This document shows, piece after piece, positions 25,264 to 54,223 of a DNA stretch of 64,000 nucleotides. Origin of the DNA: an uncultured Bacilli bacterium (lineage in GTDB: Bacteria; Bacillota_I; Bacilli_A; RF39; UBA660); the NCBI GenBank assembly GCA_910588025.1, contig CAJUQG010000002.1, positions 18,478 through 82,477 on the forward strand. The letters are read 5' to 3'. The first letter of the stretch is position 1. Every line of letters starts with the position of its first letter. The notes beneath the pieces are model-generated. The model searched no databases, was not told the origin of the DNA, and saw nothing but the letters and a program-made list of their open reading frames with translations. Both the position numbers and the translations under genes were made by a program.

Positions 25264-25476
25264 TTATGCAGCCTTTTGATTTAAATTATACTTACGATTA
25301 AACTTTTCAATATTACCAGTTCTTTTGGTATTTCCTTGTTTTCCTGTATAGAATGGATGACATTCGCTACAAACTTCAACATCAATTTTGTCTTTTGTAG
25401 ACATTGTTTTAAATGAAGCACCACAAGCACACTTTACTTCTACTTCTTTCATTTCTGGATGAATGTTTGCTCTCAT
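25264..25476 (-). CDS. rpmE: 50S ribosomal protein L31
   Basis: MRANIHPEMKEVEVKCACGASFKTMSTKDKIDVEVCSECHPFYTGKQ. An AAGGAG RBS lies 7 nt upstream. The ORF track's longer N-terminal extension lacks an RBS. Confidence 0.9.
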   Translation of the reverse strand: MRANIHPEMKEVEVKCACGASFKTMSTKDKIDVEVCSECHPFYTGKQGNTKRTGNIEKFNRKYNLNQKAA

Positions 25477-25632
25477 AATCAATCTCCTTTCGCCATGCCA
25501 AGTTATAGGCATAGTAATTTCATTTCTAATGTATTATATCATATTTTTCTTTGGTTGCAAGTGAAACATCTATAATAATTATATGTAATGTTTTAATAAT
25601 TACGCTTTTCTTTCATTTTATTTGTTACATAA

Positions 25633-26142
25633 TTATTTCATATGAAGTATATGTTTTATTTTTCCAGCAAAGAATACGAGTCCATCACTTTTTTTCATAG
25701 CAATTTGCTTTCCAATGGCTTTACCACCAACAGTTAAGGCTGAAATAAATGAAGTAACTAGTACCGTAACCCATATTCCATTTGCATTTAATTTTAAAGT
25801 AAGATAAGCTGTTAAAACGGCACCCAGAGATCCACTTACAATTCCACAAATATCACCGATTACATCGTTACAAACACTTGATACGACATTTCCATTTCTA
25901 AGTAAGGATATTGCTTCTTTTGCTCCAGCAATTTTTTTGGAGGACATGGCATGAAAACTTGATTCTTTACTTGTTAGCGCTGCTACACCAATCATATCAA
26001 ATAAGATACCTATAAAAATAACAAGGGTCATAATAAATAATAATATTACAACATTCATATCACTACAAAAACTAGTTAAAGCACTAAAAATAGCTGCTAA
26101 GAAAAAAGATAAACAAAATACTTTGAATGGCCAATATTTCAT
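25633..26142 (-). CDS. small integral membrane protein (169 aa, 4 TM, DVIGD = DxxxD motif), OapA-like candidate
   Basis: Four hydrophobic spans. The motif CNDVIGDICGIVSG lies in the third span. A GAGGTG RBS sits 6 nt before the ATG at 26140-26142. A ~525-nt transcribed ORF-free leader lies immediately upstream. Confidence 0.6.
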   Translation of the reverse strand: MKYWPFKVFCLSFFLAAIFSALTSFCSDMNVVILLFIMTLVIFIGILFDMIGVAALTSKESSFHAMSSKKIAGAKEAISLLRNGNVVSSVCNDVIGDICGIVSGSLGAVLTAYLTLKLNANGIWVTVLVTSFISALTVGGKAIGKQIAMKKSDGLVFFAGKIKHILHMK

Positions 26143-26159
26143 TTCATACACCTCTTTTT

Positions 26160-26702
26160 ATTTTATCAAGAAAAAAGATTCTTTTTAAGAACCTTTTAAG
26201 CTACAATGGTTTTTGTTGTGGTAAATTATAAATTAATTTTACGGCTTAGGTCGAGTTGAATTTCTCTACTTTCTACCTTTGGTTACCCGAGGGCGATTTC
26301 TCTTTCAAGAAAGCAACTAAGTGTTACCAGCTTAATTACTCGATTACCACTGAGTCCGCACTTTAATCCTTATAATTATAACATTCTAGAGGTTTTCCCT
26401 GACACCCACTATCCAATACTTATTCGCTTTTGCAAATACGATTTTGATAATCATCTATTTGATCGGGAATAGACTTTATTCATTATCTCCCACGTATTCA
26501 CTCACGACATGCACTTTTTTTATTTCTTGCGGGATTTTAGGAGATTCATTATATGCCATTATAACTTTCCTAAAATCTTAAATTATATAACCACCCCAAC
26601 TTGGGCAGAAGAAGCGAATTATATAAAGTGCTTTTCATGCAATTGGTAGATTTTTAGCCCTACCTTCATATTGTGTGTGTGACTAGAATAATGCACCACA
26701 TG
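26160..26702 (-). ncRNA. large structured noncoding RNA candidate (~525 nt, about 40% GC versus about 27% in the flanks), possibly an OLE-type RNA
   Basis: No ORF longer than 26 codons on either strand. GC is locally elevated (for example GGTTACCCGAGGGCGATTTC, CCACTGAGTCCGCAC). A consensus sigma-A promoter lies at its 5' end and a terminator at its 3' end. It sits immediately upstream of a 4-TM DxxxD protein. Confidence 0.45.
26168..26197 (-). terminator. intrinsic terminator/attenuator at the 3' end of the large noncoding transcript, just upstream of the membrane-protein RBS
   Basis: Minus strand GGTTCTT-AAA-AAGAATC followed by TTTTTT: a 7-bp stem with one G·U pair. Confidence 0.55.
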
Positions 26703-26709
26703 ACAATGA

Positions 26710-26738
26710 ATTATACACTATTTTTACTTTTTTGTCAA
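26710..26738 (-). promoter_or_regulatory. consensus sigma-A promoter TTGACA-N17-TATAAT driving the large ncRNA/leader
   Basis: Minus strand: TTGACA aaaaagtaaaaatagtg TATAAT. The -35 hexamer is plus-strand 26733-26738 and the -10 hexamer is 26710-26715. Confidence 0.7.
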
Positions 26739-26767
26739 ATTGAGCTTTGAAAGACCTCAATTTACTG

Positions 26768-27451
26768 CTAATTATTTATTGTTCTTAAAATTCGATTCGA
26801 TATTTCTTTATGACCTTTATAGTTTAAATAATAACTATTATTTAATAAAAAGAATTGGGGATTTTCAACTAAATCTTGGATATCAATATAAATGGCTTTA
26901 TATTTCATGGCAATATTTTTTAAATGATCATTGATGCTATTTAATTCATTGTCTGTTATATTATATGCTTTGTATAATCCTAAAATGTAGATTTTTTTGT
27001 CATTAAAATTACGGATTAATTTTATTAAATGTTCCATATCTTTTTTATAATCTTCAATTTCTTTCGTTGGTATATTTGTTTTCAAAGATGTATTCGCTAG
27101 TTCATCTAAACCTAGACCTATTGTAATAATTTTAGCTTTAGCAAAGGCTTGTTGAATGGGAATATTCATTTCTTCTAATTGGTAATTATTTTCTACACAA
27201 GTTATTAAATTTTCAACGGTTTGATTCGTTTTGGCAAAACCAGAAATGTATTTTTCTAAAATGTGTTCGGATTCTAAATAGTCTCTTATGTAATCATTAT
27301 AACTATATCCTTCTACGTTATAAGCCGTCATACCAGTTGCTAAACCATCTCCTAAAGCTAAGAGATATATGTTATGGTTTTCGTTTTTGCGATAGATAAA
27401 GAAAGTTATAAAAATTCCCATTATTATGATTAGAATTATCTTTTTTTTCAT
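26768..27451 (-). CDS. SGNH/GDSL-family hydrolase, membrane-anchored
   Basis: N-terminal TM, then block I LALGDGLATG and a C-terminal YLNYKGHKEIS (D/KxxH) block. Confidence 0.6.
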   Translation of the reverse strand: MKKKIILIIIMGIFITFFIYRKNENHNIYLLALGDGLATGMTAYNVEGYSYNDYIRDYLESEHILEKYISGFAKTNQTVENLITCVENNYQLEEMNIPIQQAFAKAKIITIGLGLDELANTSLKTNIPTKEIEDYKKDMEHLIKLIRNFNDKKIYILGLYKAYNITDNELNSINDHLKNIAMKYKAIYIDIQDLVENPQFFLLNNSYYLNYKGHKEISNRILRTINN

Positions 27452-28809: not shown

Positions 28810-29346
28810 TCATTTTAATAAATGGGAAAGACCAATTAGTATTAAAAGTAGTGCACCAAAGAAACTGGCATATACTCCTAGTATTTTGTTGGCATATTTT
28901 CCAATGAATAATCCTAATAAAGTAAAAAAGAAACTTGTTATGGAAAAGATTAGCATAGCTAAAAATAAATTATTGGTGATAGCTGTTAAACCAAGGCCTG
29001 TTGAGAAAGCATCAATGGAAACACCTATTGCAAAGAACAACATACCAGTTAAACTAAAATCAATAGTTTCTTCTTCTTTTACAAATATTTCATAAAGCAT
29101 TTGTCCAGCGATAAGAATTAAGATAATTCCTAGTAAGAAGTTACTGTTTATTTTGAAGAAATTTTGTAGGTTCTTGCCAATTAGAATTCCAAGACATGGC
29201 ATGATAAAGTGCATTACACCTACTATGCTAGATAAAGCAAGACTTTTTTTATTGGATAAGTTACACGTTCCTAAGCCTAAAGAAAGAGAGAAGGTATCCA
29301 TACTTAATGCAACTGCGATAGTAAAAATAGTCACTAGTTCAATCAT
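28810..29346 (-). CDS. mntP: putative manganese efflux pump MntP (2x DUF204)
   Basis: 178 aa, two repeats each carrying ...ALSMDTFSLSLG... / ...GVSIDAFSTGLG... Confidence 0.7.
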   Translation of the reverse strand: MIELVTIFTIAVALSMDTFSLSLGLGTCNLSNKKSLALSSIVGVMHFIMPCLGILIGKNLQNFFKINSNFLLGIILILIAGQMLYEIFVKEEETIDFSLTGMLFFAIGVSIDAFSTGLGLTAITNNLFLAMLIFSITSFFFTLLGLFIGKYANKILGVYASFFGALLLILIGLSHLLK

Positions 29347-42603: not shown

Positions 42604-43638
42604 TTAATTACCTGCTTTCTTGTTCACTTTCTTAATTTTAGCATTGAGTACTTTTTCTTTTTTTGATTCGTCTTTTTTGTCATGATCATTAGCAAGAATT
42701 TTTTTGACTAGTAAATTTTGTACCACAATGAAACCATTCGTAATTATCCAGTAAAATGCTAAAGCGGTTGGTAAACTAAAGGAAGCAATGGAAATCATGA
42801 TAATCATAAATTTAAACATAAAATCCATTTGTTTCATCACTTCATTATTTCCCATATTATTGTTTTGACTCATAGAATGTTTAAATGAAAAATAAGTAGT
42901 TAAGATAATTAAAAGTATTAATAGTATATAAATATATTGACCATTTGCGATTCCTTTTCCAGGAGTCATACCAAGGTTCATTCCAAATAGTTCCCCTTCA
43001 AAAATGGCTGGAACACGATTAATCGCTTGCAGAAAAGCAAAAAATAATGGAATTTGAATAAAAGAAACAAGACATCCACTTACAGGATTAATTTTATATT
43101 TTTGATAAATCAACATTGTTTCTTGACTTTTCATCATCATACTTTCGCTATCTGTTCGATTTGCATATTTTTTTTCAATTTTTTGAATTTCAGGATTTGC
43201 TTTTTTCATATTTTCGGCTTGGCGCATCGTTTTGATGGAAAGCGGAAATAGAATGAAACGAATTAACAATCCTACAAACATTACAGCTAGTCCGAAATTT
43301 TTTAATAAGTAACCAGCTTTCAGAATAATCCAAGCTAGTGGTTTTACAAAAATTGATTCCCATAAGCTATGATAAGCAATTTTATTTGGTACAAACTCAT
43401 TACAAGCTGGTAAATCTTCTAATTTAACTCGTAATTGGTCGTTGTATTGTTCATATATTTTATATAAGCCTTCTTCTGTTGGTTTACATAAGATATCTTT
43501 TTGGACACTTTGACCAGTTTCTTCGTTCATTACAACTTTGTTATCTTGATCTTTAATGTAGTTACTATTTCCACAACCACTGGTGCTAAAAACGATTCCG
43601 ATAAGTAATACACTCATTATTATTTTTTTATGTTTCAT
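42604..43638 (-). CDS. yidC: membrane protein insertase YidC (lipoprotein type)
   Basis: Lipobox LLIGIVFSTSGC plus a 5-TM 60-kDa-IMP core. Confidence 0.85.
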   Translation of the reverse strand: MKHKKIIMSVLLIGIVFSTSGCGNSNYIKDQDNKVVMNEETGQSVQKDILCKPTEEGLYKIYEQYNDQLRVKLEDLPACNEFVPNKIAYHSLWESIFVKPLAWIILKAGYLLKNFGLAVMFVGLLIRFILFPLSIKTMRQAENMKKANPEIQKIEKKYANRTDSESMMMKSQETMLIYQKYKINPVSGCLVSFIQIPLFFAFLQAINRVPAIFEGELFGMNLGMTPGKGIANGQYIYILLILLIILTTYFSFKHSMSQNNNMGNNEVMKQMDFMFKFMIIMISIASFSLPTALAFYWIITNGFIVVQNLLVKKILANDHDKKDESKKEKVLNAKIKKVNKKAGN

Positions 43639-43964
43639 ATTCTCTCCTTAGATAAGAGTTCAAGAAGTTTTGTTTCTAATTCTACAAAACTAGCTTCTTT
43701 GGTCTTTTCTTTCATTATTATAATATAATCATATCCTTTTGAAAACAATTTTTTTTGATTCGTCAAAATATTACGCATGCGACGTTTTATTTTATTTCTT
43801 GCTACGGCATTGCCTAATTTTTTTCCAACAGCAATTCCAAACCGAGCAAGTTGTAAGTCACTTTTCCTTATATATATATTATAAAATTTATTTTTTAAAA
43901 TTGGCCCATTTTTAATAATACTTGTAAACTCTTCATGAGTTTTTACCACTTCATATTTTTTCAT
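43635..43964 (-). CDS. rnpA: ribonuclease P protein component
   Basis: 109 aa, basic, in the conserved rpmH-rnpA-yidC order. Confidence 0.85.
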   Translation of the reverse strand: MKKYEVVKTHEEFTSIIKNGPILKNKFYNIYIRKSDLQLARFGIAVGKKLGNAVARNKIKRRMRNILTNQKKLFSKGYDYIIIMKEKTKEASFVELETKLLELLSKERI

Positions 43965-44003
43965 ATGATCATTTCCTTTATAAAAAAAGCCACTTACCGT
44001 GGT

Positions 44004-44126
44004 TTATTTACATAATTGTTTGCGTCCTTTTCTTCTTCTTCTTTTTAAAATATTTGTTTCTTTGCGTGCGAAGAAGCCATGTTTTTTCGCTTTTTTGCGA
44101 TTATTTGGTTGATAAGTTCTTTTCAT
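44004..44126 (-). CDS. rpmH: 50S ribosomal protein L34 (not in the ORF track)
   Basis: [40 protein letters not shown], with an AGGAGGT RBS. Confidence 0.85.
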
Positions 44127-44159
44127 GTATATACCTCCTTTTTTCTTAAAGCTCCCTTA

Positions 44160-44426
44160 TTATAAACTTAACATCGGAAAAAAGTCAAGAAATAACGGGT
44201 TATACACAAATTCACAATGATGTTTATAAGATTACACATTATCAACGTTGATAATTTTTCTATGTTGATAGTTTTATAAAACAAAGTTGTGGATAATGTT
44301 GATAAGTATATTTTTATCTGTTAGAATATGACTTCTAGAGCGTTGATAGATTGTGAAATCAATGTGAATTGCTGTTTCATACTTGTTTTTAAAATCACAA
44401 CTGCGTTAAAATGAAGTTGATAAAAC
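44160..44426. promoter_or_regulatory. oriC DnaA-box cluster upstream of dnaA
   Basis: One perfect TGTGGATAA at 44288-44296. Several TTATCAAC/GTTGATAA-type variants at 44200, 44240, 44249, 44262, 44297, 44342 and 44416. Confidence 0.7.
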
Positions 44427-45830
44427 GTGAGGGATTGTGGGGTGAAGTGGTTGAAGACGGAAACCGAAACATTATGGCAAAATTTCTTAGATCTCATCTA
44501 TAAAGAAATCAACGCGGCTTCATTTCATGCGTGGTTTCATGATTTGATTTTATTAAGTATTGACCGTTATCAACATCGAATTAAAGTCCAAGTTCCTATG
44601 GAAATTCACAAAAAAATTCTTGGTGATAATTATTATTCCCTCATTGAAGAAACGTTTCTTAAATTAACAGGAATTACTTATGACATTGAATTTTTATTAG
44701 AAGAAGAAAAAGAAGATATTGTGGATAACTTCCAAAAAGAAATTATCCAAGAGGCAAATATAGATAAAGTTTTAGAAGAAAAGTGGGAAACGAATTTAAT
44801 TTCTGAACTAAATTTTGATAATTATGTCGTGGGAGACTCTAATCGACTTGCCAAAGTAGCTGGTATGGCTGTAGCAGAATCGCCTGGTAAAATACATAAC
44901 CCATTATTTATATATGGTAAAAGTGGGCTAGGTAAAACACATTTAATGCATGCCATAGGTAATTATATTGTCGAACATTCAAATAAAAAGGTTTTGTATA
45001 CTACAAGTGATATGTTTATGAATGATTATACAGGTATTGCAAATTTAGAAAATAAGAATAATACAGTGGAGTATGCCAATAACTTTAAAAATAAATATCG
45101 AAATGTGGATGTATTAATTATCGATGATATTCAGTATTTAGTTGGTGCAGAGAAAACTCAACAAGAATTTTTCCACACATTTAATGCACTGCAACAAGCG
45201 AATAAACAAATTATTATTAGTTCAGACCGATCGCCAGATGATTTAAAATTATTAGAAGAACGGCTACGAAGTCGATTTATGTGGGGATTACCTGTGGATA
45301 TCTATCCTCCAGATTTTGAACTTCGTTGTAAAATCATTAAACAAAAAGTAAAAAATACGAGTATTGCTAATAAATTAGATGAAAATGTAGTGGAGTTTAT
45401 TGCAAATAGTTGTCAAAATGATGTTCGTTTTCTAGAAGGTACAATTAACCGATTAATGGCATATACAGCCATGGTTGTTCCAGATCATATTGACTTGGAG
45501 TTTGCCAATGAGGCTTTAAAAGATTTTATAAATAAAAATATTTATTCAGAAAATAGTATTGAGGGCATTCAAAATGCGGTCGCTGAGTATTACAATATTA
45601 CAATTAACGATTTAAAAGGAAAGAAAAAAAGTGCTAATATAGCTTATCCACGCCAAATCGGAATGTATCTTTGTCGAATGCTTACTGATGAAACTTTCCC
45701 ACGAATTGGCTTAGAATTTGGAGGTAGGGACCATTCGACTGTTATTCATGCTTGTGATAAAATAGAAAAGGATTTAAAAACAAATCCAACCCTTTCTAAT
45801 ACGATTAAAGAAATTAAAAATAAAATCTAA
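44427..45830 (+). CDS. dnaA: chromosomal replication initiator protein DnaA
   Basis: AAA+ motifs (GKSGLGKTHLMHA, box VII) and a C-terminal DNA-binding domain. The ORF begins at GTG 44427, but the TTG at 44451 (MKTETETLWQ...) is the more DnaA-like start. Confidence 0.9.
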   Translation: MRDCGVKWLKTETETLWQNFLDLIYKEINAASFHAWFHDLILLSIDRYQHRIKVQVPMEIHKKILGDNYYSLIEETFLKLTGITYDIEFLLEEEKEDIVDNFQKEIIQEANIDKVLEEKWETNLISELNFDNYVVGDSNRLAKVAGMAVAESPGKIHNPLFIYGKSGLGKTHLMHAIGNYIVEHSNKKVLYTTSDMFMNDYTGIANLENKNNTVEYANNFKNKYRNVDVLIIDDIQYLVGAEKTQQEFFHTFNALQQANKQIIISSDRSPDDLKLLEERLRSRFMWGLPVDIYPPDFELRCKIIKQKVKNTSIANKLDENVVEFIANSCQNDVRFLEGTINRLMAYTAMVVPDHIDLEFANEALKDFINKNIYSENSIEGIQNAVAEYYNITINDLKGKKKSANIAYPRQIGMYLCRMLTDETFPRIGLEFGGRDHSTVIHACDKIEKDLKTNPTLSNTIKEIKNKI

Positions 45831-45975
45831 TTGTGGATAAAATTATGAAATCTGAATAAACATCCACATCCAATTTTTAAAATTGGCTTAGCAAATATCT
45901 AAAATTTATGAGCTATGCACATTATAAACGACATTATTATAACTAATATAAATATGAATAAAAAAGAAAGAAGGA
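45831..45975. promoter_or_regulatory. second oriC segment (DnaA boxes plus AT-rich unwinding element) between dnaA and dnaN
   Basis: Perfect TGTGGATAA at 45832-45840, a degenerate CATCCACAT, then a more than 80% AT stretch. Confidence 0.6.
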
Positions 45976-53677: not shown

Positions 53678-53715
53678 TATAGTTGATAAATATATTTATT
53701 TTTGATAGAATTTAT

Positions 53716-53797
53716 TTGTGCAACAAATATATTGCAAAATGGTCAGGATCGGAAGATAGCAGCCAATGTAATCCCTATTTGTGTGCACTTTTTTTAT
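53716..53797 (+). ncRNA. ffs: small (4.5S-type) signal recognition particle RNA
   Basis: The hairpin GTGCAACAAATA...TATTTGTGTGCAC encloses GGTCAGGATCGGAAGATAGCAGCC, which matches the SRP domain-IV consensus GUCAGGUCCGGAAGGAAGCAGCC. A T-run follows. Confidence 0.65.
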
Positions 53798-53809
53798 TGA
53801 AGGTGAAGT

Positions 53810-54223
53810 ATGGAAAATTATTTTAATATTTGTATAAAACTGGCTGTAAAAGCATCAAAAAAAGGTGAAGTTCCAATTGGTGCAATCGTTGTTTATAATA
53901 AAAAAATAATTGCTAAAGCTTTTAATCTAAGGGAAAAAAGACATGATATAACAGCCCATGCTGAAGTGTTAGCTTTAAAAAAGGCCTCAAAGACGCTAAA
54001 ACGTTGGAATTTAAGTGATTGTGAATTATATGTCACTTTAAAACCTTGTTCTATGTGTGAAAGTATCTTAAAGCAATCTCGTATTAAAAATGTTTATTAT
54101 TTATGTGAAAAACTCTCTTTTAAAAAGGAGTTTGAAAAAACAAATTTTATTTATGAAAATATACCTATTTTAACAGATCAATATAGTAAAATTTTATCTG
54201 ATTTTTTCTCTCATAAAAGATAG
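53810..54223 (+). CDS. tadA: tRNA-specific adenosine deaminase
   Basis: CDA zinc motifs HAEVLAL and PCSMCESIL; 137 aa. Confidence 0.85.
   Translation: MENYFNICIKLAVKASKKGEVPIGAIVVYNKKIIAKAFNLREKRHDITAHAEVLALKKASKTLKRWNLSDCELYVTLKPCSMCESILKQSRIKNVYYLCEKLSFKKEFEKTNFIYENIPILTDQYSKILSDFFSHKR

Follow-up and report, generated by a model that had tools for sequence, protein, structure and literature searches.

OLE (ornate, large, extremophilic) RNA, among the most intriguing of the large non-coding RNAs of bacteria, is proposed to be a ribozyme-sized, membrane-spanning, dimeric RNA at the center of a stress-response particle. Biochemical work in Halalkalibacterium halodurans showed that the partner protein OapA binds OLE RNA at about 2:1 and localizes the RNA to the membrane (2025 review), and genetic work in the same species established roles of OLE in stress from Mg2+, alcohols, cold, and carbon source (mSphere 2024, PMC11332333; 2025 review). 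H. halodurans is the only species for which transcript stability and abundance, membrane localization, and stress phenotypes of a deletion are known (mSphere 2024, PMC11332333; 2025 review). In OLE "variant 1" (the TANB77 type), P7-P9 are shortened but present and the OapB site at the tip of P13 is often missing (PMC11332333), whereas in "variant 2", which is widely distributed and common in RF39, P7 and P8 are wholly absent and the other conserved nucleotides are kept (Fernando & Breaker 2024, mSphere, PMC11332333). Here we describe a locus on the minus strand of a 64,000-nucleotide stretch of DNA (hereafter, the window) from an uncultured Bacilli bacterium (GenBank assembly GCA_910588025.1, contig CAJUQG010000002.1, positions 18,478 to 82,477). 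This locus is almost certainly ole-oapA, an OLE RNA gene followed by the membrane-partner gene oapA, with the RNA in the short variant 2 form.

The locus lies at the largest gap in the 64-kb window that is free of open reading frames (ORFs), 616 bp between the oapA ORF and a GDSL-lipase-like gene. A sequence-only reading of this DNA had asked whether the gap holds a transcript of ~525 nt belonging to an OLE-RNA/oapA-like locus, had named an unusually long leader or attenuator RNA as its fallback, and had proposed an Rfam search and a covariation analysis. A scan of the whole window against Rfam identified OLE (RF01071) at 26202-26715 on the minus strand, with a score of 242.7 bits (E 2.3e-67) against a gathering score of 50 bits. 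The match spans model positions 1-616 and is not truncated, 514 nt being aligned to the 616 positions. Together with covariation in 37 homologous sequences, a downstream protein of the OapA type, and the pairing of OLE-like sequence with oapA in 78 of 80 related loci, this bears out the suggested identity, and the fallback is unneeded. The size was also right, because the RNA is the published short variant without P7 and P8. Two further statements of that reading held in part. The absence of any ORF above 26 codons is essentially true of the minus strand, where the longest ORF in the gap is 27 aa, but the plus strand holds two antisense ORFs, of 45 and 46 aa (26444-26581 and 26509-26649), that had gone unmentioned. 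The GC enrichment is real, at 34.2% for the OLE RNA (top 4.7% among 514-nt windows) and 20-25% in the flanks, but it is modest, with the window at 28.5% and not at the ~27% given. The parts of the locus are as follows.

26768-27451, minus strand: GDSL-lipase-like gene.
26733-26738, minus strand: -35 hexamer TTGACA.
26710-26715, minus strand: -10 hexamer TATAAT.
26202-26715, minus strand: OLE RNA, RF01071 match (114 of the 129 model pairs kept; covariation).
26700-26217, minus strand: conserved core, bounded by the two strands of P1 (~484 nt).
26171-26193, minus strand: weak terminator-like hairpin (26177-26193) and T6 (26171-26176) between ole and oapA.
26149-26154, minus strand: ribosome-binding site (RBS) GAGGTG of oapA, 6 nt before the ATG at 26142.
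25633-26142, minus strand: oapA, 169 aa, stop included in the coordinates.

Aligned to the model consensus, the RNA keeps the conserved blocks of OLE, namely GUGGUGCA.UAUUCUAGUCA, CUAAAAAU, GCCCA, AAUGGCAU, UGCAAAAGCG, GGACU.AGUGGUAAUCGAGU, CUCGACC.AAGCCGUAAAAUU, and ACCAC, and these are invariant or nearly so across the 37 sequences. The host lineage also fits OLE, whose hosts belong to the Bacillota and are typically anaerobes or extremophiles: the window carries Firmicute sporulation genes, and the nearest genomes are metagenome-assembled genomes (MAGs) of Bacilli, Erysipelotrichaceae, Oscillospiraceae, and Clostridia.

For the structural comparison, the Rfam-model structure was projected onto one aligned sequence in a MAFFT alignment of the window RNA and 36 Bacilli-type homologs; P1, P2, P3, and P3.1 were added by hand, as read from the sequence. 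Standard pairs filled 88.3% of the cells of this alignment, compared with 38-43% when the 3' partners were slid by 1-3 columns. Changes on both sides were found at 81 of the 141 pairs, and none of 500 shuffles attained any of the observed measures. Covariation supports helices P1, P2, P3.1, P4-P6, and P9-P14. At P1, GUGGU/ACCAC becomes AUGGA/UCCAU in eight sequences; the central pair of P2 occurs as six standard types (UA, GC, AU, CG, GU, and UG); and in P3.1, which is paired in 94%, all five pairs change on both sides. P3 and P3.1 have been described as the proposed membrane-spanning stem of OLE (2025 review). The elements of the folded RNA, with helices numbered as in the covariation analysis, are these.

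26695-26700, minus strand: P1 5' strand UGUGGU, partner ACCACA at 26217-26222 (helix 1; 95.5% of cells paired).
26683-26690, minus strand: P2 5' strand UAUUCUAG, partner CUAGAAUG at 26382-26389 (helix 2; 100% paired).
26668-26680, minus strand: P3 and P3.1 5' strands, partners at 26402-26409 and 26415-26419 (helices 3-4).
26645-26664, minus strand: P4 hairpin with A-rich loop CUAAAAAU, the loop invariant in the 37 sequences (helix 5; 100% paired).
26582-26627, minus strand: P5/P5.1 hairpin with conserved GCCCA loop (helix 6; 10 pairs change on both sides).
26533-26577, minus strand: P6/P6.1 hairpin with conserved AAUGGCAU loop (helices 7-8).
26509-26532, minus strand: A-rich linker replacing P7 and P8 (model positions 198-277 reduced to 14 unaligned nt).
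26423-26508, minus strand: shortened P9 arm with terminal loop CCCGAUCA (helices 9-12; fold -18.2 kcal/mol, z = -2.0).
26461-26464, minus strand: palindrome GAUC inside the P9 terminal loop.
26390-26400, minus strand: small hairpin AGG-GAAAA-CCU, presumably P10, between the P3 and P2 3' strands (helix 13).
26316-26336, minus strand: P13 hairpin, with GUAA (GNRA) tetraloop at 26324-26327 and, two positions upstream, one bulged nucleotide.
26223-26379, minus strand: P12-P15 domain including the four-way junction (helices 14-19).

The same alignment bears on whether the gap instead encodes a small protein, from either the 45-46 aa ORFs of the plus strand or the minus-strand ORFs, none of which exceeds 27 aa. 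The two plus-strand ORFs are the evidence for such a protein, but they run antisense to the covarying structured RNA, the substitutions in homologs preserve base pairs and not a reading frame, and the indels through the ORF positions are not multiples of three. In addition, gene callers place no gene in the gap in independent assemblies. We therefore give the coding explanation a negligible chance. Three independent metagenome assemblies carry the whole 625-bp intergenic region at 100% identity, and it is in these that the gap was left empty; at least 53 blocks of public metagenome assemblies contain the exact OapA sequence. The source organism is an uncultured but recurrent species.

Compared with the model, the window RNA has 7 nt in place of each of two complete hairpins (model positions 198-241 and 242-277), a shorter version of the long hairpin that comes next, and no counterpart of the small hairpin at model positions 426-437. 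The k-turn paper puts P5 and P6 at the two preceding hairpins, and the 2025 review calls the long arm P9; from this order, after P5/P6 and before the long P9, we infer that the two missing hairpins are P7 and P8. The absence of P7 and P8, with the conserved nucleotides kept, places the RNA in variant 2. It does not belong to variant 1, since P7 and P8 are absent and not shortened, nor to full-length OLE, which has ~600 nt, P7, P8, and a long P9. Relative to the full-length RNAs of H. halodurans and Clostridium acetobutylicum, the window RNA shares the conserved blocks, P1-P6 and P9-P15, the partner gene, and the dimer-contact elements; it differs in being ~100 nt shorter, in lacking P7/P8 and the 426-437 hairpin, and in its shortened P9. 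With published variant 2 RNAs it shares the P7/P8 absence, the conserved nucleotides of full-length OLE, an uncultured gut Bacillota host, and an oapA gene directly downstream. Unlike those, its host lineage carries sporulation genes (spoIIR, spoIID, and bofA) beside the locus, and because these genes adjoin it the host appears unlike a reduced RF39-type genome. We conclude that the host is an uncultured, spore-forming, low-GC Bacilli or Erysipelotrichaceae-like bacterium; the gut, rumen, and faecal names of the MAGs suggest an anaerobic lifestyle.

To place the RNA among its relatives, OLE loci were collected through the partner protein, for which over 7,800 relatives are found; an alignment of 20 of these, run against GTDB species genomes, yielded 80 loci. 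Searching these with the window RNA as query (nhmmer) detected OLE-like sequence upstream of oapA and on the same strand in 78 of the 80. The nearest locus, from a "Bacilli bacterium" MAG, has 91% identity, followed by loci from Erysipelotrichaceae, Bacilli, Oscillospiraceae, and Clostridia MAGs. Core lengths were taken from nhmmer coordinates and Rfam hits. The full-length Clostridia OLEs that were sampled score 404-511 bits in Rfam over 603-667 nt, and the Bacilli-type RNAs 212-250 bits over 481-535 nt; the window RNA matches the latter in score and length and so is a typical member of its clade. None of the 37 aligned Bacilli-type sequences, the 36 relatives coming from uncultured Bacilli and Erysipelotrichaceae-like genomes, has P7 or P8, and most have also lost distal P9.

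These data address whether the RNA might be a decaying, non-functional OLE remnant that has lost P7, P8, part of P9, and the 426-437 hairpin. Several stems are indeed missing, full-length OLEs score about twice as many bits, and rare defective ole genes have been mentioned (mSphere 2024, PMC11332333). However, 37 diverged sequences have this reduced architecture in common and show compensatory changes in almost all of the helices that remain, long blocks are invariant, and a near-consensus promoter is kept in 36 of 36. The adjoining oapA is intact and conserved, and the reported defective ole genes occur in organisms without OapA (PMC11332333). The lost P7 and P8 are reported as dispensable elements that make no dimer contacts (2025 review). 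Decay is accordingly highly improbable.

The OLE homodimer is held by four RNA-RNA contacts: one at the A-rich loop of P4, two in which P5.1 and P6.1 loops kiss, and one symmetric kiss between P9.3 loops (2025 review, cryo-EM paper). At the level of sequence, all of the homodimer elements are present in the window RNA: the CUAAAAAU loop of P4, GCCCA, AAUGGCAU, and the palindromic GAUC. The P9.3 palindrome covaries between GGCC, GAUC, and AGCU (Nature paper), and the GAUC of the window P9 loop is an already known state, because it has been published as an alternative P9.3 palindrome. P9 varies within the clade, ranging from nothing beyond its base in most sequences to ~50 nt (alignment columns 245-295), and where it is longer it often terminates in a GAUC or UGAUCA palindrome (window, L005, L009, and L016). 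This variation reads as a natural deletion series of the fourth dimer contact. The window copy differs from most of the 36 relatives in that it keeps a shortened P9 with the GAUC loop where they have lost distal P9, and it also differs from variant 2 as published in keeping the P13 features of the OapB site. [quoted passage not shown]

The sequence-only reading had placed a perfect promoter before the RNA, and this sigma-70-type promoter was found where it had been read: TTGACA-17-TATAAT at 26738-26710 on the minus strand matches at 12 of 12 positions and is unique in the 2.6 kb scanned. Transcription would start near 26701-26703, a few nucleotides before P1, and the predicted transcript is ~530 nt long. 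In the variant-type ole genes a promoter with a match of at least 10 of 12 ends 7-13 nt before P1 in 36 of 36 (14 of them perfect), compared with 1 of 34 control segments, and full-length Clostridia ole genes have a weaker conserved promoter-like element at the same place. A dedicated promoter is therefore common among ole genes and defines the 5' end of the RNA in the variant clade. The window ole gene, with its own perfect promoter and weak terminator, differs from that of H. halodurans, which is reported to lie within one polycistronic transcript (2025 review).

The terminator described in the same reading, a 7-bp stem with T6, is present (26193-26171) and conserved in the nearest relatives, but it is weak: the stem GGUUCUU/AAGAAUC has one G-U and two G-C pairs and a loop of AAA, with a fold of -8.1 kcal/mol (z = -2.0). 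A generic scanner missed it, because its rule needs at least three G-C pairs. The stem covaries and the T-run is invariant in the nearest relatives (L001-L004 and L024). A census with a fixed window and an explicit rule counted a terminator at 8 of the 37 variant loci and at 3 of the 36 with full-length OLE, and the terminator is therefore a local feature. A candidate internal oapA promoter (TCGACC-18-TATAAT, 26254-26225, minus strand, 10 of 12) was rejected; it is formed of invariant OLE nucleotides (CUCGACC ... UUUAUAAU) and lies upstream of the terminator, so the match is probably fortuitous.

A hairpin with T6 directly before the oapA RBS, the lack of a strong independent oapA promoter downstream of the hairpin, and the position of RNA and oapA on one strand could all be accommodated by a long, riboswitch-like cis-acting 5' leader or attenuator of oapA, in which the terminator would be the expression platform. 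Against this, the sequence matches OLE over its full length, and OLE is described as a stable, abundant component of a ribonucleoprotein; moreover, the terminator is found in just the minority of loci counted above, OLE lies 0.4-3.2 kb from oapA in three loci (L018, L073, and L077), and no alternative anti-terminator pairing was found. A leader function is very unlikely.

The downstream gene was described in the sequence-only reading as having a GAGGTG RBS and encoding a 169-aa protein with four transmembrane segments and a DVIGD motif, likened to OapA, and all of these features were recovered. oapA starts at 26142, 75 nt past the P1 3' strand. The protein has four hydrophobic segments (~8-26, 30-55, 94-116, and 122-140), and its predicted structure contains long helices at 4-28, 31-57, 84-118, and 122-150 (predicted local distance difference test score, 82.7). 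DVIGD occupies residues 93-97, and D93 and D97 are invariant in 20 homologs, down to 56% identity. The only proline is residue P5, and K/R clusters are found at 59-82 and 141-169, in line with the positive charges gathered on one face of OapA. The sole Pfam match is to CNNM (PF01595), at 16.9 bits and below the 28.4-bit cut-off, with no other domain; no NCBIfam model matches the protein, and a profile search of PDB sequences with it returned nothing. The relationship to CNNM thus emerged only from the sub-threshold Pfam match and from fold comparison, in which the best structural match is MtCorB (7M1U), and the predicted fold is CNNM/CorB-like. The protein agrees with the published description of OapA as a weak CNNM homolog that has four helices and a distinctive DxxxD and lacks the conserved proline of CNNM (mSphere 2024, PMC11332333). 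With the membrane domains of the CNNM/CorB/CorC/MpfA Mg2+ transporters it shares the weak PF01595 similarity and the MtCorB-like fold, but unlike CNNM/MpfA it has neither CBS nor CorC domains, has four helices and not three, carries DxxxD, and lacks the CNNM proline. Compared with other OapA proteins, nothing in the window OapA is distinctive.

Transcription most likely begins near 26702, and the RNA folds in the OLE architecture minus P7/P8. By analogy with work on H. halodurans and Clostridium cryo-EM structures, from which the functional inference is drawn, it would then dimerize. An OapA dimer would bind the OLE RNA and hold it at, or possibly across, the cell membrane, where the RNA, if like that of other species, would be abundant and stable. 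The resulting ribonucleoprotein may help the cell to cope with stress from excess Mg2+, short-chain alcohols, cold, and poor carbon sources. Within the sub-lineage of the window, most transcripts may stop at the hairpin-T6 and a read-through fraction would supply the oapA mRNA; OLE RNA would therefore be in excess over the oapA message.

Several observations weigh against this identification or against parts of it. The Rfam score, lowered by the missing stems, is roughly half what full-length OLEs reach. P3 (helix 3) is paired in only 62% as aligned with MAFFT and is less secure than the other helices, probably in part through alignment error around a variable bulge. The OapC-binding kink-turn (k-turn) was unrecognizable at its aligned position, although no formal k-turn search was made: the consensus J4a/5 segment CAUCGAUGAAG aligns to UGA-AAAGCAC, there is no G-A dinucleotide directly 5' of P5, and in this the window RNA appears to depart from full-length OLE, whose J4a/5 carries the k-turn sequence GAUGA. 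OapC is largely absent from the clades that carry the variants (Fernando & Breaker 2024, PMC11332333). One Pfam scan detected no OapB-like (KOW/SBB) or OapC-like (L7Ae/YbxF) protein among the ten smaller ORFs of the window (58-145 aa); linkage of the OapB and OapC genes to ole is not expected, and a scan of the window is uninformative on the rest of the genome. The terminator, weak and absent from most related loci, gives the read-through idea little to stand on. Finally, every functional statement above is transferred from other species.

The finding is real and correctly identified, and the window RNA is an ordinary member of a known family. The OLE family and its short variant are both in the literature, as are the partner protein with its CNNM-like fold and the GAUC palindrome. 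What may be mildly new is that the variant occurs in a spore-forming Bacilli lineage, that it is in an intermediate state with the P9.3 loop and the OapB site retained, and that the terminator ahead of oapA is specific to the lineage. The window copy could conceivably be an intermediate in OLE reduction that still keeps the P9.3 palindrome and OapB site, with ole forming an autonomous unit in this sub-lineage and terminator read-through setting the ratio of OLE RNA to oapA mRNA; we put this forward tentatively and consider it doubtful. If it were an intermediate, the nested natural deletions would help to define the minimal OLE core and the dispensable dimer contacts. The value of the locus is modest, that of a clean, well-delimited, naturally minimized OLE with an unambiguous promoter-defined 5' end, and its 36 relatives with progressive P9 loss may be useful for defining the minimal core or choosing structural constructs.

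Among the related loci, two oapA homologs (L010 and L067) were without OLE in the fetched flank, which extended upstream by only 502 nt in L010 and by 2.7 kb in L067. In L018, L073, and L077, OLE is upstream of oapA at the distances given above and is not adjacent to it. Four independent MAG or metagenome contigs (L001, L002, L060, and L084) end inside ole, their first bases aligning to ~340-510 of the 585-nt query (promoter, ole, and terminator). These contig ends may be a coincidence, or assemblies may recurrently break within ole.

The gene order around the locus, spoIIR-mntP-murA-(GDSL)-ole-oapA-rpmE-(ATP-grasp)-rpiB-DUF1146-spoIID-M23, is common to ~16 relatives. ole genes have been reported to cluster with genes of metal homeostasis, cell wall, translation, central metabolism, and sporulation (2025 review), and the window gene order fits this clustering. 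The Mn2+ efflux gene mntP (28810-29346, minus strand) shares the strand of ole, from which it is three genes upstream, and its synteny is kept in six relatives. Suppressors of an ole-oapA deletion in H. halodurans express more of the Mn2+ exporter YkoY; the proximity of mntP to ole and the YkoY suppressors amount to an association only. Downstream of oapA lies one further feature.

25264-25512, minus strand: rpmE ORF, 82 aa.

An L31-Firmicutes leader (RF03156) upstream of rpmE scored below threshold in the window (25484-25514, minus strand; 30.9 bits against a gathering score of 33.3) and above it in the relatives L009 and L016. The true start of rpmE is probably the ATG at 25476, with the leader directly upstream, because the Pfam L31 match begins at residue 13.

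The only other Rfam hit from the whole-window scan was the bacterial small signal recognition particle RNA (RF00169), at 53707-53804 on the plus strand with 56.1 bits; it is followed by a tadA-like deaminase gene at 53810-54223. Gene orientation flips within the window, being almost all minus over 864-43964 and all plus from 44427. The last minus-strand gene is rnpA (43635-43964), and the first ORF after the flip encodes 467 aa (44427-45830); the region ~43600-45900 looks like the chromosomal replication-origin region.

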